Shown piece by piece: positions 958 through 27,162 of a stretch of 64,000 nt of DNA (its first letter is position 1; every line of letters starts with the position of its first letter). Both the position numbers and the translations under genes were made by a program. The stretch covers positions 29,966 through 93,965 of the forward strand of contig JAUWHO010000001.1 in NCBI GenBank assembly GCA_030605835.1, read 5' to 3'. The stretch is from Candidatus Zixiibacteriota bacterium. Lineage in GTDB: Bacteria; Zixibacteria; MSB-5A5; DG-27. The notes beneath the pieces are model-generated. The model had not been told where the DNA came from. It saw only the letters and a program-made list of their open reading frames with translations, and ran no database searches.

Positions 958-1091
958 TATAACCCAGAGTCACCTTCACCAGATGGGAACAAGAACATAT
1001 CGCATATTTCGTTCCTGCTCTGGAACCGGCACCGGTTAACCTCAAGAAATAAGATCTCAGAAATAGTGTCAACCTTTTTGAAGTCACTAAT

Positions 1092-2888
1092 CTATCTTTC
1101 TATCCCGGTGGCCTTCTGGATCAATCTCTTGTCGTAGGCCTTGATCAGGTCCCGCCGGGTGACGATCCCCACTAAACGGTGGGGGACGTTCTCGTCTATG
1201 ACCGGTAACGCCACGGTGTCACGCAAGCCAAACTTGTGGGAGGCGCCGGCGAGGCTCTCATAGGGACTCAGGGAGGTGATCTCGGAATTGGCGATGTCCC
1301 GGGCGATGATGAGATTATCCATCCCCTCCCTGGTTATGATAGTCCGCAAATCCTGAAGAGAGATCATCCCTAAAAAGCGCCCGTTCTCGTCGGTCACCGG
1401 GAAACACTCCTCGCGGGAATCCTCCATTAACCTCCAGATGGCTCCCAGAGTCATATGTTGAGGAATGGTCTGGTAGTGACGGTTCATCACCTCCTTGACG
1501 TATATGGAGCTTAAGACCTCAATGTCTCTGCCACCTCTCAAAGTGATCCCCCTTCGCACCAATTTCAGAGTGTAGATCGACTCCGGTTTGAGGCGCCGAG
1601 CGAGAAGAGCAGAGAAAGCACAAGCCAACATCAAAGGCAGGATTATGCGATAATCCCCAGTCATCTCAAATATGATGACCATCGCAGTGATGGGGGCATG
1701 GGTCGCGCCAGCGACAACCGCTCCCATGCCAACCAGAGCATAGGCGCCCGAAGAAGCGGTTACTGCCGGAAAAAGCCAGTGCATCAACTTGCCGAAAGAG
1801 CCGCCGGCCATAGAGCCGATGAAAAGGGAGGGAGCAAATATGCCTCCAGAGTTGCCGGAGCCCAGAGTGAGAGAGGTTGCCAGTATCTTCAAAAATATCA
1901 AGACAGACATAAGCCAGAGAGCCATCTCCGAATACAAGGCCTGCTTGATGAACTCGTAACCATCCTTGAAGACTTGAGGAAAGAACACCCCGATGATGCC
2001 CAAAAGGAGGCCTCCCAGGGCCGGCTTCAGATAACCGGGAATCTTGACCTTGTCCTCAAAGAAATCCTCCGCTCTGTAAAGGGTGGTGATGTATAGGACC
2101 GAGAACAGACCGCACAGTCCTCCCAACACCAGATACATCGGAAGCTCCGCCACGCTCAAAAGCTCGTAGTGGGGAACTGAAAAAGCAGGATAGTTGCCCA
2201 GAAAGGCGTGAGTCACGACCGAGGCGATGACCGAAGATAGGACCACCGGCCCGAAGGTATGAATCGCGAAGTCTCCCAGGATAATCTCCAGGGCAAAGAA
2301 AACCCCGGCAATGGGAGCATTGAACACCGCCGAAATTCCACCGGCGGCACCACACCCCACGAGCACCTTAATCCTCTGGTCCGACATCCGAAAATACTGT
2401 CCAATGGTGGAACCAACCGCCGAACCGATTTGCACTATGGGGCCCTCTCTCCCGGCTGAACCTCCACTACCTATGCAGATGCTGGAGGCGACGCTTTTTG
2501 CGACCGCCACCCGAGGCCGAATTATACCTCCTTTGGTGGCGACCGCCAGCATCACCTCCGGAACCCCGTGCCCTTTCGCCTCTGAGCTGAAGAAAGAAAC
2601 GATCGGTCCAACCAGAAGTCCCCCCAGTGCGGGAATCAATGGGATAAATATGTGCCAGTTGGTCGTCAACTGAGAAAAGACAAGCTCCCCCTTTCCGAAG
2701 AACAGGTCATAGAAGAAGTGTATCAGAAACCGGAAGAAGAGGGCAACAAAGCCAGTGGAAAGCCCCACCACAAAGGCCAAGATGATCAATATGGTCTGTT
2801 CGGAAAGATGGGCTTTCTCAACCAGGGAGGCGATTCTGTCGCCCGTCCTCTCTAAAATGGTTGGTCTTTTGGTAGTGTCGATTTCCAT
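1092..2888 (-). CDS. ClC family voltage-gated chloride channel with tandem C-terminal CBS domains.
   Basis: GSGGSAGREGP and GIFAPSLFIGSMAGG selectivity-filter motifs, many TM segments, and a C-terminal CBS pair. Confidence 0.85.
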   Translation of the reverse strand: MEIDTTKRPTILERTGDRIASLVEKAHLSEQTILIILAFVVGLSTGFVALFFRFLIHFFYDLFFGKGELVFSQLTTNWHIFIPLIPALGGLLVGPIVSFFSSEAKGHGVPEVMLAVATKGGIIRPRVAVAKSVASSICIGSGGSAGREGPIVQIGSAVGSTIGQYFRMSDQRIKVLVGCGAAGGISAVFNAPIAGVFFALEIILGDFAIHTFGPVVLSSVIASVVTHAFLGNYPAFSVPHYELLSVAELPMYLVLGGLCGLFSVLYITTLYRAEDFFEDKVKIPGYLKPALGGLLLGIIGVFFPQVFKDGYEFIKQALYSEMALWLMSVLIFLKILATSLTLGSGNSGGIFAPSLFIGSMAGGSFGKLMHWLFPAVTASSGAYALVGMGAVVAGATHAPITAMVIIFEMTGDYRIILPLMLACAFSALLARRLKPESIYTLKLVRRGITLRGGRDIEVLSSIYVKEVMNRHYQTIPQHMTLGAIWRLMEDSREECFPVTDENGRFLGMISLQDLRTIITREGMDNLIIARDIANSEITSLSPYESLAGASHKFGLRDTVALPVIDENVPHRLVGIVTRRDLIKAYDKRLIQKATGIER

Positions 2889-3129: not shown

Positions 3130-4986
3130 CTACTTCACCAGCATCATCCTCCGGGTCTCGGTGTAATCTCCAGCACTCAACCTGTAAAAATAGAGACCAG
3201 ATGAGACCGAGGAAGCATCCCAACTGACAGACTTGTATCCCGCGCCCTGTCTCCCATCAACCAACGTTGCTACCTTCTGTCCGAAAAGATTGCAGACCTC
3301 CAACACCACTTGACCATCTTCCGCCAACTCGTACTGGATGGTAGTGGTGGCATTAAAGGGGTTGGGATAATTCTGCGATAGGGCACAAACGCCGGGAAGA
3401 TTGCTTTCCACCGAGGTAACCTCCCTGAACCACACACCACTCCCTGGCCAATCGGCTACCCCTCCCTGTGTCGAACCGTATTTGGTGAAGTAGAGACAAG
3501 TGGAGTCCGTGATAGTCCCGGGGTAGTCACCAAGATAAGCGACAAAGACATAATCTCCTCCAGGTGCAAACCCGGGCACAGGCTGGGTGATGTCATCAAT
3601 GCCAATGCTGTCGACGGGAACGTAGATGTTGTCATACAGGTGTATGGGACCGAGCCGCCCCAACTCGGGAACAAAAACATATGTCCAGAGATCAGCCGGG
3701 CCGCCCAGACCTGAGAAGTTGAAGATCCAACCGTCATAAATGATGTCGCCACCTTCCGGAGGGATGATGACTCGCATATCGTGGGGGTAAAGCTCCACAA
3801 TCCCATCGACATCCTGGTTGAAATAGTAAGCCCCTATGTCGGACCTAGTGCCGTCGGGGTCATAGAGGTAAGGCACGCCAGCATCAATGCACGGTGAACG
3901 CCACCGCAACCTGAAATCGTCCACTTCCCTGCCCACAAACATGGGGTCTACGTTGATATTCCCCTGTCCGGACCAGCCACCCTTGATGTCGCAGTACTCT
4001 ACCGTGGGATACCCCCCCGCGACATAGATCTCCGAACCGCTACCAAGAGCAGTGTTGTCCCAGACAATGGTGTTCTCGATCCGGGGGCGTGAACCGTAGT
4101 TGCAGAAAATACCTCCACCATCGAACGCAAAGTTGTCATAGATCGTGTTGCTCTGTATCAGCGGAGCAGGTGTAGGATATTCATAGTGGACCTGGATACC
4201 ACCACCAGTTGAGGCAGCACAGTTACCGACGATGAGGTTCCCGCTCACTGTGGGACTCTCGTTCCAGACGTAGATCCCGCCAGCCTCCCAGCCCGACGAG
4301 TTGCGGATGATCAGGTTGTTGCTTATCGTCGGGTTGCCATAGGAGCTGAAGATGGCTCCACCGCCCAGGAGCAGAGCGCAGTTCTCCTCGATGATGTTGT
4401 TTGAGATGACTGGATCCCCACCCCACGGGCGGACACCACCGCCTTCAGCCCTCGCCCAGTTGTGGGCGATGTAGTTGTAGCTTATGGTAGGACTACCGTA
4501 GTAGGAGAAGATCCCGGCCCCGTTGTAGGCGCAGTTGTCGGTAATGGTGTTATGGGTTATCGTGGGGCTGCAGTACTCAATGTAGATGGCACCGCCACGC
4601 CAGTCCGGGACACCGCCAGTGGCCTCTCCATACTCCAAGTGGCAATAGCTTATCTCGGAGTTACTGTTGGCGGACAGAAGCCTTATACCATGCCAGCCAA
4701 CGCCAGGATCGTCCGCAGTGAAGTAAATCGAATCAGCTTCTGTCCCGACGGCGAGAAGGGTTGCTGAATTGTCCACGATGAACTTGTAGTGCCCCTGGAA
4801 AATCACCACGATTCCAGGCTCAATGGTTAAGGCTTGTCCTGATGGCACCTGTATTTGCCCGATGACATTATACGGGCTGTTGTCTCTCGTCCAGGTGCCC
4901 GATTGATCCCCCCAGACATCGATTGCTCTGGCGGTCAGAGGAAACAACACAACCGCCATCGCAAGAACTGCAAGTAAGACCCTCAT
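3130..4986 (-). CDS. Secreted parallel beta-helix (PbH1/Pmp-like GGGI...N..I repeat) protein with a T9SS type-A C-terminal sorting domain.
   Basis: Signal peptide MRVLLAVLAMAVVLFPLTARA, repeated GGGI/GGAI-N rungs, and the C-terminal YPNPFN...LYFYRLSAGDYTETRRMMLVK. Confidence 0.8.
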   Translation of the reverse strand: MRVLLAVLAMAVVLFPLTARAIDVWGDQSGTWTRDNSPYNVIGQIQVPSGQALTIEPGIVVIFQGHYKFIVDNSATLLAVGTEADSIYFTADDPGVGWHGIRLLSANSNSEISYCHLEYGEATGGVPDWRGGAIYIEYCSPTITHNTITDNCAYNGAGIFSYYGSPTISYNYIAHNWARAEGGGVRPWGGDPVISNNIIEENCALLLGGGAIFSSYGNPTISNNLIIRNSSGWEAGGIYVWNESPTVSGNLIVGNCAASTGGGIQVHYEYPTPAPLIQSNTIYDNFAFDGGGIFCNYGSRPRIENTIVWDNTALGSGSEIYVAGGYPTVEYCDIKGGWSGQGNINVDPMFVGREVDDFRLRWRSPCIDAGVPYLYDPDGTRSDIGAYYFNQDVDGIVELYPHDMRVIIPPEGGDIIYDGWIFNFSGLGGPADLWTYVFVPELGRLGPIHLYDNIYVPVDSIGIDDITQPVPGFAPGGDYVFVAYLGDYPGTITDSTCLYFTKYGSTQGGVADWPGSGVWFREVTSVESNLPGVCALSQNYPNPFNATTTIQYELAEDGQVVLEVCNLFGQKVATLVDGRQGAGYKSVSWDASSVSSGLYFYRLSAGDYTETRRMMLVK

Positions 4987-5100
4987 TGATACCTCCCCAG
5001 AATTAGGGTTATTGGTTATAAAGAACTGTTAGCTTTCCTTAGACTGTATTCGATCCATTAGATAATCTAAGCTGCCGAGAACATTTGTCAAGCAAAAAAG

Positions 5101-5240
5101 TTGATTTTCTCCACAAGTGGAACCTCACTTCACCAGCATCATCCTCCGGGTCTCGGTGTAATCTCCGGCAGTGAGCTTGTAGAAGTAAATGCCGCAAGAG
5201 ACCTCCGAGGCATCCCAGACGACCGACCTGTAACCTGCCC
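5101..5240 (-). pseudogene. Orphan 3' fragment of a T9SS CTD gene (WDASEVSCGIYFYKLTAGDYTETRRMMLVK*).
   Basis: Only the last ~30 codons of a CTD plus the stop codon are present. No upstream ORF body. It lies directly downstream of the tRNA-like gene. Confidence 0.5.
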
Positions 5241-5331
5241 ACTCAATATCTTACACCACTGTGGCCACCTTCGCGCCCAGCTATTTCAGTCTGAACCAGA
5301 ACCGAAAAGTTCTGTCTTTAGTGAGGTCAAC

Positions 5332-5404
5332 CCCCCGCGGCCGGACTCGAACCAGCGACAGGGTGGTTAACAGCCACCTGCTCTACCAACTGAGCTACAT
5401 CCCC
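5332..5404 (-). tRNA. tRNA-Asn(GTT)-like gene. The D, anticodon and T arms are canonical, but the acceptor stem does not pair in my hand fold.
   Basis: On the minus strand: GGGGATG-TA-GCTC-AGTTGGTA-GAGC-A-GGTGG-CTGTTAA-CCACC-CTGTC-GCTGG-TTCGAGT-CCGGC-CGCGGGG-G. The 5' GGGGATG would need 3' CATCCCC, but CGCGGGG is observed. No CCA. Confidence 0.5.
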
Positions 5405-5509
5405 GAAACTGCTTTCAACGTCTCCGTTTACCAACTCCACCTGTCTTTGTCCTGCCCGCGCCGGTATTGGAAATGCTAGGGGCCTTTCACCACAATCTTT
5501 CAGCTCTCC

Positions 5510-6232
5510 TCACTGCTTTACAGCTAAAACTGCGTTTCTCCTCCGAAGAAATGGAACCAGCCATTGAAGGAGCCTTTCCGCGATATTGAAAACGGGCAGG
5601 TGCGACTCGCGGTGATAAGCTCTCCTGATTCTGAATCCCTGGTCTGTTAATTCCTCTTTGAGTTCCCTCAGGGTTCTATATCCAACGTGACCTTCATCCT
5701 TTTTCAGGATTATATTCCTCTGTTTCAGATACTCGAAGATATGCCCCGGATTAGGCGTCCAGATTATGAGTTTCCCGCCTACCTTGAGAACCCGCTTGAC
5801 CTCGCCAATCAACCTTTTGAACACCTCCGGGTAGAGATGCTCGACCAAATCAGCACAGATAATCACGTCGAAGGAAGCCGACGCAAATCCTGTAGAAGTG
5901 GCGTCTGCCAGGACAAACTCCGCCTTCAGATTCAAATCCTGTGCCAACCTACGGCAGATACTAATCGATTCCTTGGAGTAGTCCAACCCAGTCACCTCAA
6001 CACCCATCCTGGCCAGCTCCATAGAGAAGGTTCCAACCCCGCAACCCAAGTCCAACACCTTCTCACCTCTTTTAGGCCCATAGATCTCAAATACCCTCTC
6101 CAGTCGATAGCGGGTGAACCTGTCTCTCTTCCGATAACTCTCTAAAAGTGGTCGGTAATACTCCCGGTCATAGTGGGGGCGGATTGCCTCCTGTTTTTGC
6201 AGGTCACCGGCATCAGCTTCCTTTTTCTGCAA
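5510..6232 (-). CDS. Class I SAM-dependent methyltransferase.
   Basis: Motif I VLDLGCGVGTFSMELA and a downstream acidic motif II (VIICADLVEH). Confidence 0.75.
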   Translation of the reverse strand: MQKKEADAGDLQKQEAIRPHYDREYYRPLLESYRKRDRFTRYRLERVFEIYGPKRGEKVLDLGCGVGTFSMELARMGVEVTGLDYSKESISICRRLAQDLNLKAEFVLADATSTGFASASFDVIICADLVEHLYPEVFKRLIGEVKRVLKVGGKLIIWTPNPGHIFEYLKQRNIILKKDEGHVGYRTLRELKEELTDQGFRIRRAYHRESHLPVFNIAERLLQWLVPFLRRRNAVLAVKQ

Positions 6233-6277
6233 GCAGCACCTCCTTCGAGAAGATTTTTGAGTTTACCCTTTCATTCC

Positions 6278-6978
6278 TCATTTGAGCAGAGTTACTGGCT
6301 TTTTCCAACTGTGATCGGCGCACGACAGTTGCATGTAATAGACTCCGGAAGCATAATCCCTGGCGTTGAAGAAAACATGGTAACTCCCCTTATGCAGCTT
6401 CCCCTGATAGACATTCTCCATCTTTCTGCCAAGGGGGTCATAGACGGAAAGATCAACCTCGCCTGGTTTTTGAACACAGAAGGAAACATTCATTTGAAGA
6501 TTAAACGGGTTGGGATATGCTGTAAATACAAACCAGTCTTCTGGATTCGAGGGAGACTCGTCGTCCCCGATAACCGGTTTCTAGTGCAGGGCCCAGGTGT
6601 CGTTGAACAGAGCATAGTAGCGCTGATTGCCACCGAAGACCAAGAACCTGCCACCGTGTACGTCGATATTGCCGGTGCAGTCTCGACGTGGCTAAAGGTG
6701 ATAACCGAACCGGCTGAGTCTCCGTCAATTATCGTAGTGGAAATGTAGGTTGTGTCCCCTGTGGTCAAAAACAGCGAAGCCAAAACCACATTATGCCCGT
6801 TGAAGTTAAGGTTCTCATAGTAAGTGCCCGGCTGCACCAAGACGGTATCGCCGTCTAGCCCGTGATCTATCCCCTCCTGTATGGTGGGATAGTCCCCCGG
6901 AATGTTGATGATGGTGGCACCGGCAGTCAGAGGAAACAACACGACCGCCATCGCAAGAACTGCAAGTAAGACCCTCAT
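6278..6978 (-). pseudogene. Disrupted mosaic paralog of the beta-helix T9SS cargo family. The N-terminal ~95 aa and a divergent CTD are retained, and the beta-helix body is deleted or frameshifted.
   Basis: ORF 6490-6978 carries the signal peptide of the 3130-4986 gene and then a body matching the 7118-9127 gene, before it decays. ORF 6278-6493 holds a CTD-like tail (SGVYYMQL...). About 0.7 kb in total, against about 2 kb for intact paralogs. Confidence 0.6.
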
Positions 6979-7117
6979 TTGGTACCTCCCCAGAATTGGG
7001 GTTATTGGTTATAAAGAACTGTTAGCTTTCCTTAGATGTATTCTATCTCCTTAAATAACTTACATTGCCGAGAGCATTTGTCAAGCAAAAAAGTTGATTT
7101 CCTTCATTAGCGGAACC

Positions 7118-9127
7118 TCACTTCACCAGCATCATCCTCCGGGTTTCGGTGAAGTCTCCGGCAGTCAGCTTGTAGAAATAAAGACCGGAGGAAACCGAGG
7201 AAGCATCCCACATCGCAGAGCGGTATCCAGCCGCCTGTCTTTCGTCTACTAAGGTTGCCACCTTTTGACCGGAGAGGTTGTAAATCTCCAGCTTGACGTA
7301 AGCATCTACCGGCAACTGGCAATTGATAGCGGTGGTTGCGTTGAAGGGGTTAGGGTAGTTCTGGCTCAGAGAATACGCTCTCGGCAGAGTAGCTTCCGAT
7401 AGCTCGGAACGGCTATCGAACCACCCCTTAAGAGCCTCCCAACCGTTCCTCTCCCCTGAGGTATAAGCAGCGCCCTCCTTTGCAAAGTACATACAGCTGG
7501 AGTCAATGGTAGAAGAAGGAAAGTCCCCGATGTAGGTCACGAAGCTGTAATCGCCGGAAGGGGCATAACCCGGCACATGCTCTATCAGGTCAGCCCGGAT
7601 GATGCTGTCCGCAAAGGGGATGGTCACATCGCTGTAGCGCCACAGGCGGTAAGGACGGTTAAGCCCCGGCACAAAGGCCTGCGCCCAGATGTCCACCGTG
7701 AGGTTACCCCGCGAGAGATTGAGAACACCGCCGTCATAGGTGATGTCTCCACCCTGCGGCGGAATGACAATCGGCTCATCGTGCGGATACACCTCAACGA
7801 TTCCGACCACCGCGAGGTTGAAGTAGAATGCGCCAATGTCGGAGCGGGTGCCGTCAGGGTCAGTCAGCGAAGGATCGCCGGCATTGATACAGGGGGAGTG
7901 CCACCTTAGGTGGAAATCATCGTTGTAGGGGCCAGCAAACAGCGGGTCAGCATCGATATTGCCGAAACCGGGCCAGCCACCATTGACATCACAGTACCTG
8001 ACTGTAGGATCACTGGCATAACCCACGAAAATCTCTGGGCCGTTTGGCGCTATATTTCCCCACAAGACACTGTTTGTAATCGCTGGGTTGGAATAGTAGT
8101 AGCAATAGACCCCACCGCCGTAAGTAGCCGAATTACCGCTGATGGTGTTTTTGATAATCACCGGTGTGGAGGGGAAGCAAGAAATCCCACTACCTCGATT
8201 AGCCCAATTTTTGCTTATGATATTATCGCTCATCGTAAATTCTGGACGTATCCTCACTATTGCTCTTTTATCTTCATCATCATCACAAGAAATTCCACCT
8301 CCGGTGCTAGCTGAATTACCGCTGATAATATTATTGCTTATCATAGGGCTGGAAACGAAACAGTAAATCCCACCACCGCGAAAGCTAGCCGAATTACCGC
8401 TGAAGGCGTTATCGCTTATAGTCGAACTGGAATATTCACAGCAAATTCCGCCGCCGTAAGTAGCCGAATTACCATTGAAGGTGTTACCACTTATCTTTAA
8501 TCTGCCACGCCAGCAACAGATCCCGCCGCCGAACTCAGCGGAGTTATCGGTAATTGTGTTAGCGCTTATGGTTGGGCTGGAATACTCACAACAAATTCCG
8601 CCACCTTCGGCGTAAGCAACAACTGCCGAATTTCTGCTAATTGTATTACTGCTTATCGTTGCGTTGGAAGATGAGCAAAGAATCCCGCCGCCACCCCACC
8701 AACCAGTCGAATAATTATCGTTGATGATATTATTGCTTATCGTTGGGCTGGAGCCTTTGCAATAGATCCCGCCGCCGGAGCCAGCGCTTCCATTCTGAAT
8801 TGTGAATCCCACAACCTGAGCGGTGCTGTCTTCGCCACTTTCAAAAGTGATGACCGAACCGGCTGAATCACCGTCAATGATAGTGGTGGATATGTAAGCC
8901 GTATCCCCGGTGGTCAAAAACAGCGAAGCTAAAACGACATTATGCCCGTTGAAGTTAAGGTTCTCATAGTAGGTGTCGGGCTGCACCAGGACAGTGTCTC
9001 CATGCGCCCCGTGATTTATCCCTTCCTGTATGGTTGGGTAATCATCGGGGATGTTAATAACAGTAGCACCGGCGATCAGAGGAAACAGCACGACCGTCAT
9101 AACAAAAAGTCTAAGTAAGGCCCTCAT
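7118..9127 (-). CDS. Secreted parallel beta-helix repeat protein with a T9SS type-A CTD.
   Basis: Signal peptide, more than 12 GGGI(Y/C)C...N rungs, and the C-terminal YPNPFN...LYFYKLTAGDFTETRRMMLVK. Confidence 0.8.
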   Translation of the reverse strand: MRALLRLFVMTVVLFPLIAGATVINIPDDYPTIQEGINHGAHGDTVLVQPDTYYENLNFNGHNVVLASLFLTTGDTAYISTTIIDGDSAGSVITFESGEDSTAQVVGFTIQNGSAGSGGGIYCKGSSPTISNNIINDNYSTGWWGGGGILCSSSNATISSNTISRNSAVVAYAEGGGICCEYSSPTISANTITDNSAEFGGGICCWRGRLKISGNTFNGNSATYGGGICCEYSSSTISDNAFSGNSASFRGGGIYCFVSSPMISNNIISGNSASTGGGISCDDDEDKRAIVRIRPEFTMSDNIISKNWANRGSGISCFPSTPVIIKNTISGNSATYGGGVYCYYYSNPAITNSVLWGNIAPNGPEIFVGYASDPTVRYCDVNGGWPGFGNIDADPLFAGPYNDDFHLRWHSPCINAGDPSLTDPDGTRSDIGAFYFNLAVVGIVEVYPHDEPIVIPPQGGDITYDGGVLNLSRGNLTVDIWAQAFVPGLNRPYRLWRYSDVTIPFADSIIRADLIEHVPGYAPSGDYSFVTYIGDFPSSTIDSSCMYFAKEGAAYTSGERNGWEALKGWFDSRSELSEATLPRAYSLSQNYPNPFNATTAINCQLPVDAYVKLEIYNLSGQKVATLVDERQAAGYRSAMWDASSVSSGLYFYKLTAGDFTETRRMMLVK

Positions 9128-9255
9128 TTGGTACCTCCCTTAAAATAGGTTTATTTGTCAAAAGGGGATGCTGGCTTTCCTTGGAATACTTCTCTTATAA
9201 TCCCTATAGTAACCTAAGGCTTCAGATGACCTTTGTCAAGCAGAATGATGACAAG

Positions 9256-10026
9256 CTATTTCAGTCTTTCCTTCGCCTCTTCCCAGAGCCTGTCCATCTC
9301 TTCCAAGTTGGAATCGGAGAGGGTCTTACCCTTCTCTCGCAAACGGTTTTCGATGTATTCGAAGCGTCTTTTGAACTTCTCAGTGGTTGAATTCAAAGCC
9401 TCCTCCGGGGATAAACCTAAATGCCGGCAGAGATTGACCAGGGAGAAGAGTACATCCCCAAGCTCATCTTTGACCTTACGCTTCTCGCCCTCGTGGAACG
9501 ACCTCTCCAGCTCGCCGACCTCCTCCTTGATCTTCTCAAAGACCTCCTCAGCTCTCTCCCAATCGAAATCGAACCGGGCAACCTTCTCCTGCACCCGATA
9601 AGCCTTGAGCAGGGCCGGCAAGGACTTGGGGACTCCCTCCAGGACGGAATACCCCTTCCTGCCGGAATTAGCGAGCTTTATATGTTCCCAGTTCTGCAGA
9701 ACCTCTTCCGGGGTGATCTTCCTCCTTTTCTCGAAGACGTGGGGATGACGAGCGATGAGCTTTTCACAGATCCCCTCGGCGACCCCCCAGATGTCGAAGC
9801 GCCCCTTTTCCTCAGCTAAACGGGCGTGGAAAACAATCTGAAGCAAAAGGTCTCCCAGCTCCTCCTTCAATTTCTGGTCGTCTCCGGAGTCGATGGCCTC
9901 TATGACCTCGTAAGCCTCCTCGATGAGATAGGGTTTGAGGCTCTGGTGGTCCTGTTTCAAGTCCCAGGGACAACCGTCGGGAGAGCGCAGACGAGCCATG
10001 ACTCTTATCAATCTCTCAAATCGGTT
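9256..10026 (-). CDS. mazG: Nucleoside triphosphate pyrophosphohydrolase MazG.
   Basis: MNRFERLIRVMARLRSPDGCPWDLKQ...EE.YE and tandem EExGD-type MazG motifs. The start is moved to the ATG preceded by GAGGGTG. Confidence 0.8.
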   Translation of the reverse strand, partial: NRFERLIRVMARLRSPDGCPWDLKQDHQSLKPYLIEEAYEVIEAIDSGDDQKLKEELGDLLLQIVFHARLAEEKGRFDIWGVAEGICEKLIARHPHVFEKRRKITPEEVLQNWEHIKLANSGRKGYSVLEGVPKSLPALLKAYRVQEKVARFDFDWERAEEVFEKIKEEVGELERSFHEGEKRKVKDELGDVLFSLVNLCRHLGLSPEEALNSTTEKFKRRFEYIENRLREKGKTLSDSNLEEMDRLWEEAKERLK

Positions 10027-10189
10027 CATTTTTTCACCCTCGCTGTCCAAAATTAGAAGCAAAAAATGCCGAACGTATAGTAATAAAATAAAACCTAATT
10101 AGCTTGACAAACTTTTTTATGGCTATTATCATTTCTGATTGTCAGAGTGATTTGACAATTTTTTTTAGTCCGCTACAGATCCGTAAGAA

Positions 10190-12883
10190 GTGGTGATTGA
10201 GGTGAACGAAGAGGTCTTACCAAAGCAATACGACCCCAAGAAGACCGAGGATCGGTGGTATCAGTATTGGGAGTCCCGGGGTCTTTTCAAGGCCGACCCC
10301 GAAAGCCCCAAGCCGCCGTACAGCATTGTCATTCCGCCGCCCAACGTTACCGACATCCTCCATCTGGGGCACGCCTTAAACAACAGCCTTCAGGATATTC
10401 TGGTTCGCTACAAGAGGATTCGGGGTTTCGAGACCGAGTGGCTACCGGGGATCGACCACGCCGGAATCGCTACTCAGGTGGTGGTCGAGAAGAAGTTGGC
10501 AGAAGAAGGGATGAGTCGTCAGAAGCTGGGACGGGAGGAGTTCTTAAAGAGGGTTTGGCAGTGGAAGGACAGGAACGCCGACATCATCATCGAGCAGCTC
10601 AAGAAGATCGGCTGTTCCTGCGACTGGGATAAAACCAGGTTCACCATGGACGAGGGGCTCTCCCGGGCAGTTCTGGAGGTCTTCGTTCACCTTTACAACA
10701 AAGGGCTGATCTACAAAGGGAACTACATCGTCAACTGGTGCCCGCGCTGTCAGACTTCCTTATCCGACGATGAACCCGAAAGGGATGAACGGGATGGCCG
10801 GCTCTGGTACATAAAATACAAATTGAAGGGGGAGGACGAGTATATCACCGTCGCCACCACCAGGCCGGAGACCATGCTGGGGGACACCGCCGTCGCCGTT
10901 CACCCCAAAGATAAACGTTACAAAAAATACATAGGCAAGACCGCCATCCTGCCGATACTCGACCGCGAGCTTGCCATCATCGGGGACGAATATGTCGATC
11001 CCCAGTTCGGCACCGGCGCCGTCAAGGTTACTCCGGCGCACGACCCCAATGACTTCGAAGTCGGCAATCGCCACAACTTAGAGAAAATCAATGTCTTAAA
11101 CCCCGATGGCAGCATCAACCAGAATGGCGGCAAGTTCAAAGGTCTGGATCGCTACGAGTGCAGAAAAAGACTGGTCGCGGAACTGAAGAAGAAGGGGCTT
11201 TTAGAGAAGGAGGAGAAATACCGCGTCCCGGTTTTAACCTGCTACCGTTGTCATACCGATATCGAGCCCTATCTGTCGGAACAATGGTTCGTCAAGATGA
11301 AACCGCTGGCGGAGCCGGCCATTAAGGCGGTCAAAGAGGGCACCATAAGATTTTATCCCGGGCACTGGAGCAAGGTCTACCTCCACTGGATGGAGAACAT
11401 CCACGATTGGTGCATCTCCCGGCAGTTGTGGTGGGGACATCGTATTCCGGTCTGGTATTGCGACGACTGTCCCGAGATAACGGTCTCCAAGACCACCCCG
11501 GAGAGTTGTGGCCACTGTGGGAGTAAAAATGTCCACCAAGAAGAGGATGTCCTGGACACCTGGTTCTCCTCCTGGCTGTGGCCCTTTTCCACCTTCGGCT
11601 GGCCGGAGAAGACCAAGGAGCTGGAGGTCTTCTATCCCACCAAGCCCCTCTTCACGGCCTCGGAAATCATCTTCCTCTGGGTCGGGAGAATGGTGATGGC
11701 CGGGTATGAATTCATGGGCAAGCCCCCCTTCACCGACGTTTACATCCACGGCACCGTCCGGGACATAAACGGGATTAAGATGAGCAAGTCCCTGGGGAAC
11801 GGGATCGACCCCCTGGAGATCGTTCGGGATTACGGTGCCGATGCCCTGAGGATGACATTAGTCTTGGTCACCCCGGAGGGACAAGACCCCTTCCTGGCCA
11901 AGAACTCCTTCGAGCTGGGGAGGAATTTCTGCAACAAGCTCTGGAATGCTGGTCGCTTCGTTCTTTCTAACCTCAAGGATTTCGAGGCCAAGGAAGGGGA
12001 GACCTTCCCTCCGGACAGAAAGAGCTTGGACACCGCCGACCGCTGGATTCTGTCGCGCTTCTACGGGGCGATGGAAACCGTCGAGAAGGCCATCGAAAGC
12101 TATCGGTTCAACCAGGCCGGGAAGACTCTCTACGATTTCCTCTGGAAGGATTTTTGCGACTGGTATCTGGAATTCATAAAAGAGCGCCTTTACGATGCCG
12201 AGCATCCCCGGGAGAAAAGGATACCACAGCTTTTGGCCTCCCACCTGCTGGAGAAGACCCTGGTGGCTCTGTCTCCATTCGTTCCTTACATCTCCGAGGA
12301 GATCTGGCAGAGGTTGTCCAAGAAGATTTACATCGACGGCTCCCCCTGGACCGTCAACTACGCCGGCTGGCCGCAGACAAGAAGAGAGTGCCTCGACCTT
12401 GCCTTAGAGTCAGAGATGTCGCAGCTTCAGGAGGTCATCTATTCAGTTCGCAGCATCCGGGCGGAGATGAACGTCAAGCCGGCAAAGAGGGCAGACGTCA
12501 TAATAAAAACCGACAATCCCGAGCTCCACAAGCTGCTGGAGAAAAACAGACATTATATAACGCAACTGGGGAAGGTCGACAACCTGGAGATCTCTCCGAG
12601 AGCTAAGAAACCCCAGCATGCCGCCTCCGCGGTCGTCAGGGGAGCGGAGATCTACGTTCCCCTGGAGGGCTTGATTGATCTGGAGATTGAGAAATCACGT
12701 CTGGAAAAGGAGATGGAAAGGCTCAACGAGCAAATCGACAAGACCGCCAGGAAACTGAACAACAAAGACTTCACCAACAAAGCGCCTCCGGAGGTTGTCG
12801 AGAGAGAGAGGGCCAAACAACAGGAATATCAACAGATGCTCGACAAAATCGTCAAGAATATCGAAAGCTTGGTGGGATGGTAG
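10190..12883 (+). CDS. valS: Valine--tRNA ligase.
   Basis: HLGH (PPPNVTDILHLGHAL) and KMSKS (IKMSKSLGN) class I motifs, and a coiled-coil C-terminus. The exact GTG start is ambiguous within 10190-10211. Confidence 0.92.
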   Translation: MVIEVNEEVLPKQYDPKKTEDRWYQYWESRGLFKADPESPKPPYSIVIPPPNVTDILHLGHALNNSLQDILVRYKRIRGFETEWLPGIDHAGIATQVVVEKKLAEEGMSRQKLGREEFLKRVWQWKDRNADIIIEQLKKIGCSCDWDKTRFTMDEGLSRAVLEVFVHLYNKGLIYKGNYIVNWCPRCQTSLSDDEPERDERDGRLWYIKYKLKGEDEYITVATTRPETMLGDTAVAVHPKDKRYKKYIGKTAILPILDRELAIIGDEYVDPQFGTGAVKVTPAHDPNDFEVGNRHNLEKINVLNPDGSINQNGGKFKGLDRYECRKRLVAELKKKGLLEKEEKYRVPVLTCYRCHTDIEPYLSEQWFVKMKPLAEPAIKAVKEGTIRFYPGHWSKVYLHWMENIHDWCISRQLWWGHRIPVWYCDDCPEITVSKTTPESCGHCGSKNVHQEEDVLDTWFSSWLWPFSTFGWPEKTKELEVFYPTKPLFTASEIIFLWVGRMVMAGYEFMGKPPFTDVYIHGTVRDINGIKMSKSLGNGIDPLEIVRDYGADALRMTLVLVTPEGQDPFLAKNSFELGRNFCNKLWNAGRFVLSNLKDFEAKEGETFPPDRKSLDTADRWILSRFYGAMETVEKAIESYRFNQAGKTLYDFLWKDFCDWYLEFIKERLYDAEHPREKRIPQLLASHLLEKTLVALSPFVPYISEEIWQRLSKKIYIDGSPWTVNYAGWPQTRRECLDLALESEMSQLQEVIYSVRSIRAEMNVKPAKRADVIIKTDNPELHKLLEKNRHYITQLGKVDNLEISPRAKKPQHAASAVVRGAEIYVPLEGLIDLEIEKSRLEKEMERLNEQIDKTARKLNNKDFTNKAPPEVVERERAKQQEYQQMLDKIVKNIESLVGW

Positions 12884-12938: not shown

Positions 12939-14306
12939 ATGAGAAAGATTGCACTTCTTATGATAGTTTTCTTTGGGGCCTGCGCTTTCGCCGGGGATTT
13001 CAGCCTCACCGTCTATAATCAGGACATAAGCCTGGTGAAACAGAAAGAGAGCTTCAACTTCTCGAAGGGGACCCAGGAGATAAGTCTGCAAGGGGTTCCC
13101 TCCCGGATCGACCCCACCTCGGTTCATTTCAAGCCCTTGAAGGATGCCAACAAAATCGCGCTGTTGGAGCAAAACTACCGTTACGACTTGGTGAGCCCCT
13201 CTAAGATATTCGAGAGATACTTAGACCATAAGATCCAGCTCACCACCAAGGGGGACAAATTCTACGAGGGCAGCCTCCTGAGTTTCAACGAGGGGCAGAT
13301 CGTGATTAAGAATGGCGGTCTCTCCATCGTGCGCGTCGATGAGATCAGGGACTATCAGTTCCCCGACCTCCCCGAGGGGCTTTTGACCAAGCCGACGCTG
13401 GTGTGGTTGGTAGAGAGCGGCATCCGCGGTCGCCGCGATTGCGAGGTCAGCTATCTCACCAAGGGGTTGAGCTGGCATGCCGAGTATGTTGCCGTAGTCG
13501 ACCAAGAGGATAAGAACTTGGAGCTGTCTGGATGGGTGTCATTGGATAACAGAAGCGGGGCCACCTACGAAAACGCCAAGCTCAAACTGATCGCCGGAGA
13601 TGTTCACCTGGTGGAGGCTTATCCGACCCGCCTCGTTGATATGGAAGGACTGGGTCGACCCTCCAAGGCGGTGCCCCAATTTGAAGAGCGTGCCTTTTTC
13701 GAATACCACCTCTATACTATGATCAGGCCGACAACTCTCAAAGATAAAGAGACCAAGCAACTCTCCCTGTTTCCGGCAGCCTCCACTCCGGTCAAAAAGA
13801 TTTACACCTTCGAGAGCAGAGGCTACTACCCTCGAGCTCGAGGCGGACGAGATCAGAAGGTGGCCGTAACTCTGGAGTTCACCAACGCTCAGAAACAGGG
13901 ACTGGGGATCCCCCTGCCGGAGGGAAAAATCAGAGTCTATAAGGCCGACAGAGATGGGTCTTTAGAGTTTATTGGGGAGGATAAGATCGATCACACCCCC
14001 AAAGATGAAAAGGTGCGCGTTTTCGTCGGGAACGCCTTCGATATCGTCGGGGAGAGAACTCAGAAGGAGCGCAAGGAGCTTGCCCCCAAGCTGGTCGATG
14101 AGACCTACGAGATCAAGTTGAGAAATCATAAGGAGGAGAAGGTAGAGGTGGTAGTGGTGGAACACTTCCACCGCTCCCGGGACTGGGAGATAATTGAATC
14201 CAACTACACCTATACCAAAAATGATGCCTGGACGGTTGAATTCGTCATTCCGGTGAAGGCCGACGGCGAATCCATTTTGGAATACAAGGTCCGTTACCGC
14301 TGGTAG
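12939..14306 (+). CDS. DUF4140/DUF4139-like (mucoidy inhibitor MuiA-like) secreted protein.
   Basis: Signal peptide, and an N-terminal TVY...V...LP..IDP.SV pattern typical of DUF4140/DUF4139 proteins. Motif-level recall only. Confidence 0.55.
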   Translation: MRKIALLMIVFFGACAFAGDFSLTVYNQDISLVKQKESFNFSKGTQEISLQGVPSRIDPTSVHFKPLKDANKIALLEQNYRYDLVSPSKIFERYLDHKIQLTTKGDKFYEGSLLSFNEGQIVIKNGGLSIVRVDEIRDYQFPDLPEGLLTKPTLVWLVESGIRGRRDCEVSYLTKGLSWHAEYVAVVDQEDKNLELSGWVSLDNRSGATYENAKLKLIAGDVHLVEAYPTRLVDMEGLGRPSKAVPQFEERAFFEYHLYTMIRPTTLKDKETKQLSLFPAASTPVKKIYTFESRGYYPRARGGRDQKVAVTLEFTNAQKQGLGIPLPEGKIRVYKADRDGSLEFIGEDKIDHTPKDEKVRVFVGNAFDIVGERTQKERKELAPKLVDETYEIKLRNHKEEKVEVVVVEHFHRSRDWEIIESNYTYTKNDAWTVEFVIPVKADGESILEYKVRYRW

Positions 14307-18230: not shown

Positions 18231-20381
18231 ATGAATATGAGACTGTTTTTGAGCTTTGTCATTGTTTCCCTTTTTCTCCTTCCTGCTTCTTCTTTGGCGG
18301 TGGAGGTTTCCGGTCCGGTATGGGGTCGCTGGACGGTTGAGAACTCCCCTTACGATGTCGTTGGAGAGGTGAGAGTACCTCCCGAATCGACCCTCATAAT
18401 CGACCCCGGAGTGGTGGTCAACTTCAAGGGGCACTACAAATTTATCGTGGATAGTGCCGCGGTGCTGTTAGCAGTCGGGAGCGAGACCGATTCTATCTAC
18501 TTCACTCCAGAGGACACCACCGTTGGATGGCACGGCATCCGCTTCATCCATGCCGACGGAGCCTCACACCTCTCTCATTGTCAAATCAGATACGGAAAAG
18601 CCACGGGGACCTATCCCGACTACCACGGTGGCGGTGTCTTCTGTTACTATTCTGACCTCAAAATTAACAACTGTAGCATCGTCAGAAATCATGCGATGAG
18701 AAACGGTTTTGGCGGGGGAATCTACTGCTACCACTCGAGCTGCGAGATAACTGAAAGCGACATCAGCTTCAACAAGGCCACCCCGATCGGAGGCGGCATT
18801 TACGCCGTCTATTCAAATCTCACCATCAGATCCAGCAGTCTCGTCAGAAACATGGCGTGGGGGGCCGGCGGCGGCATCTACTGCGGCTCCTCCGATTTGG
18901 TCTCAAGCTCCAACAGCTTCAGCGACAATTGGTCCTTCTTCGGAGGCGGGATCTATGCCTTCAGCTCTCAGGTCAACATAACCAGCGACAGCTTTGAAGC
19001 TAACTCCATTAGCCACCTGGGGGGCGGGATTTTCGTTGGCGACTGCGATGGAGTAATAAATGATAACGTCATCGCCGGTAACGATGCTGAGGATGGTGGC
19101 GGCATCTTTTGCGGGTATGGTTCGACGGTTATCATAGCCAATAACCTCATCAGCAATAACACTACCTACCACGCCGACGATGATGGCGGCGGCATCTTCT
19201 GCCACAATTCAAGCCCCGAGATACTTCATAACCTCATTATCGGGAACTTCGCCCAGCGTTACGGTGGTGGTATCTATCTCTGGGGCTCAAGTCCCTTGAT
19301 AGAAGGCAACACCATAAGCATGAACACCGCCCAATACGGTGGGGGCATATGTTGTCACGATAGCTCCTTTGTAACGGTCACAAACAACATACTCTGGGAA
19401 GATTCTGCCGAGGTGGGAATGGAACTCTGCTTGTTATATGATGCGGAAGCAGTCCCCCCTGTGCTTACAGTTAGTTATAGTGACGTTGAAGGGGGCGAAG
19501 GAGATGTTTACGTCGCCCCTGAAGCCGAACTTGTCTGGGGATACGGCAACCTCGATCTAGACCCACTCTTTATCGATTCCCACGGAGACGATTTTCACCT
19601 GCTGCCCACGTCTCCGTGTATCGACGTGGGAGATCCATATATGGAGGACTATGACCACTCCCGTTCGGACATGGGAGCTTTGCCATATTTCCACAAGATC
19701 GCCTTGCGCCTGCGCCCGGATGACCCTTTCCCTCTCAGCTTCCCCCGGGGTTATGACGCCTACGGGATGAGAACCATCGCCAATAACACTGCCTCTCCCA
19801 AGCCGGTCAAGCTTTCGAGCGTCATTACCAACTCCGCCGGTGACACCCTGAGAAATCTGTATTCGTGGGAGGGAAATCTGCCCAGACAACACTTGAGGGA
19901 GGATTACGGCTATCTCCACGTTCCAAGCTATGTGCCGCCCGGTTTCTACAACTACGTGATGGCGGCGGAGAATGCTTCAACCGGTGAGATCTGGCACACC
20001 TCGGTGACGCCGTTTGAGATTTCTGAAGGTGGAGCGATTGCAACCTCTGGTGAAGGTTGGTTCTCACAATTCGGGGAAAAGTTCTCTCGGGGCGAGGATG
20101 TGAGCTTTATCCCTTCAGAGACGAGCCTCAATACTCGTTGTTATCCCAACCCCTTCAATACCTCCACCACTATCAGCTACCAGCTTCAAACTGCAGGCCA
20201 GGTCACTTTGGAAGTCTACAACCTTCTTGGACAGAGGGTGACCACATTAGTGAACGAAAAGCAGCAGGCTGGAGATAAATTTGTAATCTGGGATGCTTCC
20301 CAAGTTTCCTCCGGGCTTTACTTCTACAAGTTGACCGCCGGGGATTTCACGCAGACCAAGAGGATGATGCTGGTGAAGTGA
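18231..20381 (+). CDS. Secreted parallel beta-helix repeat protein with a T9SS type-A CTD.
   Basis: The N-terminus is homologous to the 3130-4986 gene (VWGRWTVENSPYDVVGEVRVP...HYKFIVD). It has GGGI rungs and ends YPNPFN...LYFYKLTAGDFTQTKRMMLVK. Confidence 0.8.
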   Translation: MNMRLFLSFVIVSLFLLPASSLAVEVSGPVWGRWTVENSPYDVVGEVRVPPESTLIIDPGVVVNFKGHYKFIVDSAAVLLAVGSETDSIYFTPEDTTVGWHGIRFIHADGASHLSHCQIRYGKATGTYPDYHGGGVFCYYSDLKINNCSIVRNHAMRNGFGGGIYCYHSSCEITESDISFNKATPIGGGIYAVYSNLTIRSSSLVRNMAWGAGGGIYCGSSDLVSSSNSFSDNWSFFGGGIYAFSSQVNITSDSFEANSISHLGGGIFVGDCDGVINDNVIAGNDAEDGGGIFCGYGSTVIIANNLISNNTTYHADDDGGGIFCHNSSPEILHNLIIGNFAQRYGGGIYLWGSSPLIEGNTISMNTAQYGGGICCHDSSFVTVTNNILWEDSAEVGMELCLLYDAEAVPPVLTVSYSDVEGGEGDVYVAPEAELVWGYGNLDLDPLFIDSHGDDFHLLPTSPCIDVGDPYMEDYDHSRSDMGALPYFHKIALRLRPDDPFPLSFPRGYDAYGMRTIANNTASPKPVKLSSVITNSAGDTLRNLYSWEGNLPRQHLREDYGYLHVPSYVPPGFYNYVMAAENASTGEIWHTSVTPFEISEGGAIATSGEGWFSQFGEKFSRGEDVSFIPSETSLNTRCYPNPFNTSTTISYQLQTAGQVTLEVYNLLGQRVTTLVNEKQQAGDKFVIWDASQVSSGLYFYKLTAGDFTQTKRMMLVK

Positions 20382-20666: not shown

Positions 20667-21512
20667 TTATGTATTTTCAATTATGCCACTATTGACGCAT
20701 ATTTGTGTGAACAGTGCTCCAACATTAAATAGGACTGTATTTCCTGTATCAATTCCCAGTTTATTTACTTTTATCTTAACTTTAATTTCAGCTTTTTTCC
20801 GTGCATCAAAAATTGCAAATATACCTTGCGCACCCTTACTTCCCGTAATATTCACTCTTGCTGGATTGTTTTCAAATTCTTTTGAGCAGGTTTTAAGAAC
20901 ATAACTTTTTATATCCTGCTCATCTGTTAACTCTAAATATTCTTTAGTCACGAACTCATTACCATAAAATTCCATTTTTGTTAGGATAGAAAAGTCTTCT
21001 TCTCTGTCAAAGGAAATAACGTCAATGCTCATAAAGAATCTATTATCAAGGGTTCCTTGTTCTATCAGGTAATCTATATAATAATCTAAACCATCAGTTA
21101 TTCTGCCTGAGTTATCAATATTGTATTTCTTTTTAAGAACCGCCAGAAGTTTCTTTAGCCCAGTATCAAAGTTACCCCGAAAATCAGCGTAGAGTTTGTC
21201 TCTTAGTAGAAGCGGTATTTTGCAATCATCAATAATAACTGGAAGTATTGTTATTTTCTTATCTTCAATTTCTTTTAATAGCCCTGCATTAATTTCCCTC
21301 TTAACCCACTCGGATTTTATTGAGTTATTTGAAAATACAACACAAATGTAGCTTGCTCCTTCAAGACCATCCTGAATCTTATTGATAAATGAATCACCAA
21401 CACTGATTTGCCACTCATCTTTCCATACCTTGACATTATGAGAAATGAGAGACATAGCTAGTTTATCAACAAATTCGCTATCTTGATGGTTATAACTTAT
21501 AAATACTGACAT
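20667..21512 (-). CDS. TIR-domain protein with an uncharacterized C-terminal domain of about 145 aa (TIR-C).
   Basis: FISYNHQDSEFV (beta-A) and SEWVKREI (SxW...E catalytic-Glu signature). The C-terminal half matches nothing I recognise. AT-rich codon usage. Confidence 0.75.
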   Translation of the reverse strand: MSVFISYNHQDSEFVDKLAMSLISHNVKVWKDEWQISVGDSFINKIQDGLEGASYICVVFSNNSIKSEWVKREINAGLLKEIEDKKITILPVIIDDCKIPLLLRDKLYADFRGNFDTGLKKLLAVLKKKYNIDNSGRITDGLDYYIDYLIEQGTLDNRFFMSIDVISFDREEDFSILTKMEFYGNEFVTKEYLELTDEQDIKSYVLKTCSKEFENNPARVNITGSKGAQGIFAIFDARKKAEIKVKIKVNKLGIDTGNTVLFNVGALFTQICVNSGIIENT

Positions 21513-21565
21513 AGATTTTCACTATTATCTCATCACATAACGATAAGGATAACCCCCTGGTATGG

Positions 21566-21600
21566 AGCGCAGCGGAATACCAGTCGGGTTCATCTTTTTG
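21566..21600 (-). terminator. Hairpin between TIR-B and TIR-C. Possible intrinsic terminator or attenuator.
   Basis: Minus strand: CTGGTAT-tccgctgcgctcc-ATACCAG, then GGGGTTATCCTTATCGTTAT. A GC-rich hairpin in an otherwise AT-rich spacer. Confidence 0.3.
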
Positions 21601-21617
21601 TTATGCTAAATTAAGTC

Positions 21618-22001
21618 TCAGTCCCGAATAGCTTTTGCTATCTCCTTAGCTGCAGAAACTGGAGAGCTTTCACGCAAATATTGATATTTTACTAAGGATA
21701 AAGGTAGTCGCTCATGTCCAACTTCATCAATAACAACTGGAATAATCCTTTTTTTGTCAGCCACAGCAGCCCCTAACTCAAAATATATCCATGGACTTTG
21801 AAGGCTATTTGAACTTAACAAAACCACCAAAGTGCTACTCGCCCGAAGTGCCTCTTGAGTTTGTTGCCTAATATCTTCCCCTAAGGATATTTCATGATAA
21901 TCAAACCAAACTTCAATTCCTTCCTGCTCAAGGGTTTCAGCGAATGCTTGCACCCAACGTCTGTCTTTGAAGGAGTAGGATAAGAATATTTTATTCTTCA
22001 T
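21618..22001 (-). CDS. TIR-only protein (TIR-B).
   Basis: FLSYSFKDRRWV and SPWIYFEL (SxWxxxEL). 127 aa. Its start overlaps the upstream TIR-A stop. Confidence 0.75.
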   Translation of the reverse strand: MKNKIFLSYSFKDRRWVQAFAETLEQEGIEVWFDYHEISLGEDIRQQTQEALRASSTLVVLLSSNSLQSPWIYFELGAAVADKKRIIPVVIDEVGHERLPLSLVKYQYLRESSPVSAAKEIAKAIRD

Positions 22002-22435
22002 TTCTCTACCCCCATCTTAGAATCTTTGTTGACACGCTCTTCAAGCTGACCGAAATATTGGTCAATATCATTTAAACTAATGATGTCCCTTTTCTTTAGG
22101 AATACAGGTGCGTTGGGACGAGATTGAAATTCTGAAGGGGATAAACCGTGCAAAACCACAATTATTGGGATTCTCCTTATCCACGCTGCTCCTATTTCTG
22201 CCCATACGTATGGCCTCTCAAATGACCATGGTGTGAATAACACTAATAATTCATCTGCCTTATCCAAAAACTCTAGAATATCTTCCTCGAATTCAGCACC
22301 AATATCGACATCTGCCTCATCGAGAAATGGAGTAGCATTGTGAGATGTTATTTCTCTTGCTATCTGCCTTGCCACCCAAGTATCTTGCCCCGAATGGCTA
22401 ACAAACACCAATTTTTCATTAGTTTGGTCGGTCAT
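21998..22435 (-). CDS. TIR-only protein (TIR-A).
   Basis: FVSHSGQDTWVA and TPWSFERPYVWAEIG. 145 aa. First gene of the AT-rich island operon. Confidence 0.7.
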   Translation of the reverse strand: MTDQTNEKLVFVSHSGQDTWVARQIAREITSHNATPFLDEADVDIGAEFEEDILEFLDKADELLVLFTPWSFERPYVWAEIGAAWIRRIPIIVVLHGLSPSEFQSRPNAPVFLKKRDIISLNDIDQYFGQLEERVNKDSKMGVEK

Positions 22436-22999: not shown

Positions 23000-23259
23000 T
23001 GTCACCAGCTAGCCTCGCCGAAGACACCAGGGATTAGATTAGCGTAGGTCAAGTATCAGACCGAAGCTAACTTCCATCAAGCGGCAGGAATTTTCTTGAC
23101 AACAGGGGGCTTTTTTGTATCTTTGGAAATGAAAGGGCTTGATGACGCCGCCCCATTCTAACTGGTCAGAATGAACTCTACCGCGGGGCGATCATCTGTT
23201 TGACAGTCCGAAGCGTGTCTAAAACGTCCGAAGTCTTACCATTCCAAAAAGGAGGAGCT

Positions 23260-24957: not shown

Positions 24958-25044
24958 GTTTTTTGTACGGCCCGGAGAGATTGAGTTAGTTCTCGGTGAG
25001 AGAACCGAGAGCTGAACCTTGCATCAGATTTGAAGGGTGTTGTA

Positions 25045-27132: not shown

Positions 27133-27162
27133 AGAAGAACCTCTGAACTCACTGGAGCTATT

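Follow-up and report, generated by a model that had tools for sequence, protein, structure and literature searches.

The locus studied here raises a simple question: is the 73-nt tRNA-like sequence on the minus strand of the window (the whole 64-kb stretch of DNA analyzed), at positions 5404..5332, a working tRNA-Asn, and if not, what kind of event left it there? On that strand, this stretch reads GGGGATG TA GCTC AGTTGGTA GAGC A GGTGG CTGTTAA CCACC CTGTC GCTGG TTCGAGT CCGGC CGCGGGG G. When re-read from that strand, the D, anticodon and T arms had been transcribed correctly in a preceding sequence-only reading, and so had the two acceptor strands, GGGGATG and CGCGGGG, which that reading declared unable to pair. 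The D arm, the anticodon arm with GUU, the T arm with TTCGA and the discriminator G73 are all those of a functional tRNA, with the exception of the 7-bp acceptor stem (positions 1-7 with 66-72), where 2 of 7 pairs are possible (G7-C66 and U6-G67). The same reading had left the decision to a tRNA finder, and ARAGORN called 0 tRNAs over the whole 64-kb window, so the outcome of a normal tRNA was not obtained. The Rfam family RF00005 gives only a local match at 5338-5399 on the minus strand, with 46.7 bits (the gathering score being 29) and E 3.9e-08; the alignment, from position 6 to position 65 of the 71 in the model, does not take in the acceptor stem. No other Rfam family, rRNA included, was found in the whole-window scan at gathering thresholds. 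The sequence does not qualify as a tRNA-Ala(TGC) either, as G3 faces G70 instead of forming G3:U70 and the anticodon is GTT. The coordinates of all features discussed below are collected in the table.

Table. Features around the tRNA-like sequence (window coordinates).
Feature	Coordinates	Strand	Basis or remark
Hybrid positions 1-6, GGGGAT	5399..5404	-	From tRNA-Ala(TGC); 6/6 informative sites Ala-type
Hybrid positions 7-19, GTAGCTCAGTTGG	5386..5398	-	13 nt identical in both parents; proposed crossover interval
Hybrid positions 20-73, tRNA-Asn(GTT) body + CGCGGGG + G73	5332..5385	-	Asn-type informative sites
Spacer between methyltransferase gene and tRNA, 105 nt	5405..5509	-	96% identity with L001, in which an Ala-type tRNA 5' end follows
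Class I SAM-dependent methyltransferase, 240 aa, intact	5510..6232	-	Pfam Methyltransf_25/11
Type IX secretion CTD, C-terminal half	6278..6405	-	Por_Secre_tail match; left end of the ~1-kb block in common with L001
Window-specific left flank: N-terminal half of the CTD and truncated beta-helix gene	6406..6978	-	Homology; frames read from the sequence
Spacer after the hybrid, 51 nt, with hairpin CAGAAC-TTTTCG-GTTCTG (5297-5314)	5281..5331	-	
CTD pseudogene fragment, last 51 codons and stop	5125..5280	-	tblastn to neighboring CTDs
Beta-helix protein with CTD	3130..4986	-	Pfam; marks the native tRNA-Asn side of the junction

One could still imagine that the locus works as a tRNA-Asn, or as a regulatory or processing element resembling a tRNA, if a wrong base call in the G/C tract hides a paired stem or if the stem is repaired by RNA editing or completed by a distant strand. 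The perfect D, anticodon and T arms and the presence of G73 would suit such a function, and in a second assembly of the locus (L008, described below) position 3 is C, which adds one acceptor pair. Nevertheless, 5 of the 7 acceptor pairs are mismatched in the window, and we know of no case in bacteria in which editing repairs five acceptor pairs. The C-rich tract of the plus strand, suspected beforehand of a sequencing slip, is identical in L008; it corresponds to the purine-rich 3' strand that a tRNA-Asn normally has, with G73 after it (CGCGGGA-G in the related metagenome contigs L010 and L038). No CCCCGCG able to complement the 3' strand exists upstream of the hybrid, and a strand completing the Ala stem (TTCGAGTCCGGC followed by CATCCCC, with up to 3 mismatches) had 0 matches in the window. 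Copies of CATCCCC lying close to the locus were considered as partners of the Ala stem and are unrelated to it. The minimum-energy RNA fold has no acceptor helix and is no better than that of shuffled sequence (z = -0.68). Taken with these results, a functional element is hardly credible.

The reason for the unpaired stem becomes clear when the parts are compared with intact tRNA genes. Positions 1-6 agree base for base with the 5' strand of the tRNA-Ala in L001, L002 and L003; in the last two, this tRNA begins GGGGATGTAGCTCAGTTGGGAGAGCG. The nearest relative, L001, follows the window as far as tRNA position 19, after which it has GAGAGCG (Ala-type) and the window TAGAGCA (Asn-type); this tRNA-Ala parent is known to position 26 only, where the contig ends. 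From position 20 to 73 every informative site is Asn-type except 72, with 0 Ala-type sites, and G72 is unlike either parent. Against the intact tRNA-Asn of L010 and L038 (TCCCGCG...CGCGGGA-G, called tRNA-Asn(GTT) by ARAGORN), hybrid positions 7-72 agree at 65 of 66 bases, the sole difference being G72 vs A72, and G73 is common to them. The switch thus falls in a stretch common to two different tRNA genes, a 13-mer that is single copy in the window, and the flanks match the loci of the corresponding parents, upstream in L001-L007 and downstream in the beta-helix gene and L010. The CGCGGGG strand with G73, which the sequence-only reading took as foreign, is therefore native to the Asn body, and it is the 5' GGGGATG that came from elsewhere. 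The suggestion of a hybrid holds as far as a non-functional, pseudo-tRNA-like recombination scar is concerned, but not in its swapped 3' end. With acceptor strands from two tRNAs that cannot pair, the molecule is no normal substrate for RNase P or aminoacylation, and as it is not expected to be processed or charged, we regard it as a pseudogene.

We therefore interpret 5404..5332 (minus strand) as a non-functional tRNA-Ala/tRNA-Asn hybrid pseudogene formed by short-homology recombination within GTAGCTCAGTTGG, a reading to which we give a probability of about 85%. It is an ordinary scar of genome rearrangement and no new type of RNA. In this scenario, the tRNA-Ala(TGC) spacer region would have given the first 6 bases (possibly up to 19) and the ~1-kb block upstream, and the tRNA-Asn(GTT) locus the remaining tRNA and the farther downstream flank with the beta-helix gene, the two being joined by illegitimate recombination inside the 13 nt common to both tRNA genes. 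For the origin of the Asn half, public metagenome contigs were scanned for its anticodon arm, variable loop and T arm, which returned 104 loci. Nearly all of them are normal tRNA-Asn genes with 5' TCCCCGG, 3' CCGGGGA and discriminator G, and no further copy of the hybrid was found among these 104 loci with identical Asn anticodon and T arms. Two others of the 104 are broken tRNA-Asn copies, each in a different way. In L067 (~5807-5880) the 3' acceptor strand is replaced by CCCATTT and ARAGORN makes no call, and in L109 (~1049-1100, minus strand) only the part from the anticodon stem onward is retained.

The upstream flank leads to the rRNA spacer of related bacteria. L001, a Logan contig (SRR30965924) with 97% protein identity for the methyltransferase, is collinear with the window from within a CTD, through the methyltransferase gene and the spacer that follows it, and into the tRNA. 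In other relatives, the methyltransferase gene is found between tRNA-Ile(GAT) and tRNA-Ala(TGC), as in L002 (83% protein identity), L003-5 (73%) and L006/7 (66%). In L003 and L006 the 16S rRNA gene lies upstream and the 23S rRNA gene downstream, which places the methyltransferase gene inside the 16S-23S spacer of those relatives, in the order 16S, tRNA-Ile, methyltransferase, tRNA-Ala, 23S. The corresponding spans are 105-1101 in L002, 42-3364 in L003 and 8106-14554 in L006. A protein gene between the tRNA-Ile and tRNA-Ala of the 16S-23S spacer is unusual, and we found no description in the literature of this arrangement in Zixibacteria. The ORF may be co-transcribed with the rRNA. Except for the methyltransferase gene, the rRNA-operon flanks of L006 have nothing in common with the window. 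The 23S rRNA gene of L006 (GCA_024641335.1) also contains a group I intron at 12977-13266 (Rfam RF00028, 59.7 bits). Between the window and L001, the methyltransferase genes differ by 12 nt (8 nonsynonymous and 4 synonymous changes), and when changes are polarised with an L002-type outgroup, 4 of 6 fall on the window branch. These small numbers hint at relaxed constraint on the gene in that branch.

The other end of the region shared with L001 lies within a CTD as well. Homology begins inside this domain, at about window position 6405, and the common block is ~1 kb long (window ~6405..5386), and each of its ends lies in a repeated family, the left one in the CTD and the right one in the tRNA D-arm. 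Beyond it, the window has an ORF (6490-6978) whose similarity to Zixibacteria beta-helix proteins is confined to their N-terminal ~100 aa, and matches of more than 78% identity to this ORF were limited to the window's own protein. The whole of 6278-6978 (minus strand) has the aspect of a truncated beta-helix/CTD pseudogene, the sorting domain lying after a stop and in a frame other than that of ORF 6490-6978. In L001, the sequence beyond the shared block consists of 67 unrelated nt followed by the 3' end of a tRNA-Ile. No match elsewhere was found for the 67 nt, which stand between the tRNA-Ile and a CTD fragment of ~41 aa with an in-frame stop (L001 94-220), itself located between the tRNA-Ile and the methyltransferase gene. 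This fragment shows homology to the complete CTD that precedes the methyltransferase gene in the window. No remnant of a tRNA-Ile was found upstream of the latter gene, neither by pattern search nor with Rfam at E up to 10 (4000-10200).

On the downstream side, the 51-nt spacer that follows the hybrid has no match elsewhere except in L008. After it comes the piece of a CTD that the sequence-only reading had noticed; it is real and truncated, and by homology it starts at 5280, which leaves ~50 nt to the tRNA end rather than the ~90 first given. It extends from 5280 to 5128 with a stop at 5125-5127 and an in-frame TAA at 5251-5253. By tblastn, it shows 74% identity with the CTD at 7121-7270 (E 5e-22) and 72% with that at 3133-3282 (E 5e-21), over 50 aa, and in Pfam it reaches 12 bits (E 0.24) at profile positions 48-73. 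A complete Por_Secre_tail gene would show the 75-position profile at the end of an ORF with a signal peptide; here only the last 51 codons are present, with the in-frame stop and no upstream ORF, and 5125..5280 is a CTD fragment or pseudogene. The end of this fragment and the promoter region that follows are conserved upstream of an 87% beta-helix orthologue in L113. The search among beta-helix homologues for longer upstream sequence ended there, as neither L113 nor L114 extends as far as the tRNA.

In L010, the intact tRNA-Asn is followed at a distance of 2.1 kb, on the same strand, by a remnant of the beta-helix gene of the window. Positions 6686-6850 of L010 match window 4995-4831 and the similarity then jumps to window 3157-3041. 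We conclude from this remnant that the right flank in the window is the native tRNA-Asn locus. The product of this internal deletion in L010 is a mini-ORF (6695-6919) in which the signal peptide is fused to the last CTD residues of the beta-helix gene. In the window, the regions 3130-4986, 7118-9127, 18231-20381 and 23200-28302 encode type IX secretion cargo with near-identical C-terminal ends (...YFYKLTAGD.TETRRMMLVK), which provide many dispersed repeats and could drive rearrangement. Three adjacent TIR-domain genes (TIR_2, ThsB_TIR-like) are also found at 20667-22435 (minus strand), possibly a defence locus. Promoter and terminator scans gave consensus-level matches only and were not used as evidence.

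As the parents are found on metagenomic contigs, the junction itself had to be weighed against an artefact, in which a contig ending in tRNA-Ala would have been misjoined to another starting in tRNA-Asn through the common D-arm sequence. The scan of species-representative genomes used a pattern ending in G72, which makes it blind to a native A72 tRNA-Asn in the same MAG, and it gave one match, L008, a 1,640-nt SPAdes contig with coverage 4 from the MAG Candidatus Zixiibacteriota K_1_bin.48 (JBHIBM01). L008 corresponds to window 5137-6776 at 99.7%, both junctions included, and ARAGORN finds no tRNA in it either. The proteins of the window are recorded on another NCBI contig (98,287 nt), so L008 and the window are two separate assemblies, likely independent, with a common study or common reads being possible. 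They differ at five positions only (5227, 5402, 5512, 5523 and 6507), all of C/G type and at 4x coverage, which may be low-coverage errors. The difference at 5402 is the one that gives L008 a C at tRNA position 3, and with the difference at 5512 the methyltransferase stop is lost in L008, where the ORF would read through the hybrid tRNA.

In favor of such an artefact, metagenome assemblies are well known to break or to be misjoined at ribosomal RNA operons and at tRNA genes, almost all contigs with the nearest homologues of the methyltransferase are short, the end of L001 falls exactly within the tRNA, and there is no rRNA in the window. Against a misjoined contig, the parents have only 13 identical bases in common, and assemblers commonly use k-mers of 21 or more, so that a mis-join in the graph is not expected over such an overlap; in addition, L008, assembled separately, has the same junction and both flanks. 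Due to the short overlap and the recurrence of the junctions in L008, we consider an assembly chimera very unlikely.

A further candidate is the scar of a mobile element that integrated into or excised from the tRNA-Asn, leaving a partial tRNA of the attL/attR type, which was the cause put forward by the sequence-only reading. The neighborhood of the intact gene lends it some appeal. The intact tRNA-Asn of L010 (region 4519-6930) is directly followed by a gene for a large serine recombinase (4779-6140, minus strand), L010 and L038 (2057-2304) diverge 175 nt after the tRNA-Asn, the recombinase being absent from L038, and broken tRNA-Asn copies exist in L067 and L109. This fits a recombination-prone neighborhood of tRNA-Asn in the relatives, and leaves the Ala-derived 5' end unexplained. 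However, integrases use the T-loop or the 3' end of tRNAs, and the crossover here falls within positions 7-19, around the D arm. What is foreign is the 5' strand, which came from a tRNA-Ala together with its native upstream flank, and the 3' strand is native to tRNA-Asn. The ORFs scanned over 1-64 kb of the window gave no match to an integrase, recombinase or transposase domain. The 3' direct repeat that an att site would show next to an integrase-coding element is likewise absent within the window, where only 5.3 kb are available on the 3' side. Neither integration or excision at the tRNA 3' end nor the cognate att half-site predicted with it, a second copy of the 3' part of the tRNA, thus found any counterpart in the window, and we rate this origin as highly improbable.

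Returning to short-homology recombination between tRNA-Ala and tRNA-Asn, the extent of the event that produced the hybrid can be pictured in more than one way. As the block is only ~1 kb and non-rRNA, core-chromosome DNA is present on both sides (the window contains ValRS, PriA, MreB and a ribosomal protein operon), we favor a patch, comprising the 3' half of the CTD, the methyltransferase gene and the first tRNA-Ala bases (~6405..5386), that would have been copied from an rRNA spacer and placed at the tRNA-Asn locus by crossovers over short homology, one within the CTD repeat and one within the D-arm of the tRNA. We give this model about even odds. A somewhat unlikely alternative is that the rRNA operon was broken up in place by separate rearrangements on each side. 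The CTD fragment that L001 has of its own, between tRNA-Ile and methyltransferase, points to at least two events. We also tried to derive the CTD fragments of both L001 and the window from one ancestral arrangement and rejected this model, as no history with a single event fits the two.

Under either the patch or the break-up of the operon, a functional tRNA-Asn elsewhere in the genome would be required, as the sequence-only reading had already deduced, and is a reasonable expectation; no other tRNA-Asn is present within the 64-kb window. More doubtful is the idea that the hybrid marks the exact point at which the rRNA operon of this species, possibly its only one, was split through recombination of the spacer tRNA-Ala with a distant tRNA-Asn. 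If this were true, the 16S side, with the methyltransferase gene, would be unlinked from 23S, L001 would represent a near-ancestral and still linked state, and the locus would show a mechanism for the origin of unlinked rRNA genes caught in the act. An inversion or a break-up of the operon would further predict a 23S rRNA gene preceded by the reciprocal hybrid, TCCCGCG-TAGCTCAGTTGG-GAGAGCG...CATCTCCA.

For annotation, the locus is best labelled a tRNA pseudogene, and it should not count as a tRNA-Asn when the completeness of the bin is assessed. We found no description of a bacterial Ala/Asn tRNA hybrid in the literature, and the locus offers a clean bacterial example of the conserved D-arm sequence of unrelated tRNA genes, including the tRNA-Ala of the rRNA spacer, serving as a substrate for ectopic recombination. 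The type IX secretion cargo cluster appears as a zone of repeated deletion and patchwork, with at least 2 gene remnants within 2 kb and another in L010. The methyltransferase gene in the 16S-23S spacer of several Zixibacteria lineages is perhaps the more interesting by-product.

Among known systems, the partial tRNAs at attL and attR of islands and prophages resemble the hybrid in being mostly a normal tRNA with one end broken in a variable region. In att duplications, though, the 3' part of one tRNA is repeated beside an integrase, whereas here the 5' end is replaced from another tRNA together with its own flank. There is ample documentation of unlinked rRNA genes (Brewer et al., bioRxiv 10.1101/705046), and the locus is similar to such unlinked or interrupted operons in that parts of the spacer (the methyltransferase gene and the tRNA-Ala 5' end) lie away from 16S and 23S; unlike in those genomes, the block here may be a second copy and the operon intact. 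A parallel in structure comes from a plastid genome, where a pseudogene composed of parts of two tRNA genes was ascribed to illegitimate recombination (Hiratsuka et al. 1989, cited in PMC12371153). Two different tRNA genes were joined there at a short common sequence, as in our case, the difference being that the plastid hybrid accompanies a mapped large inversion, while the one described here lies in a Zixibacteria chromosome and has the tRNA-Ala of an rRNA spacer as one of its parents.
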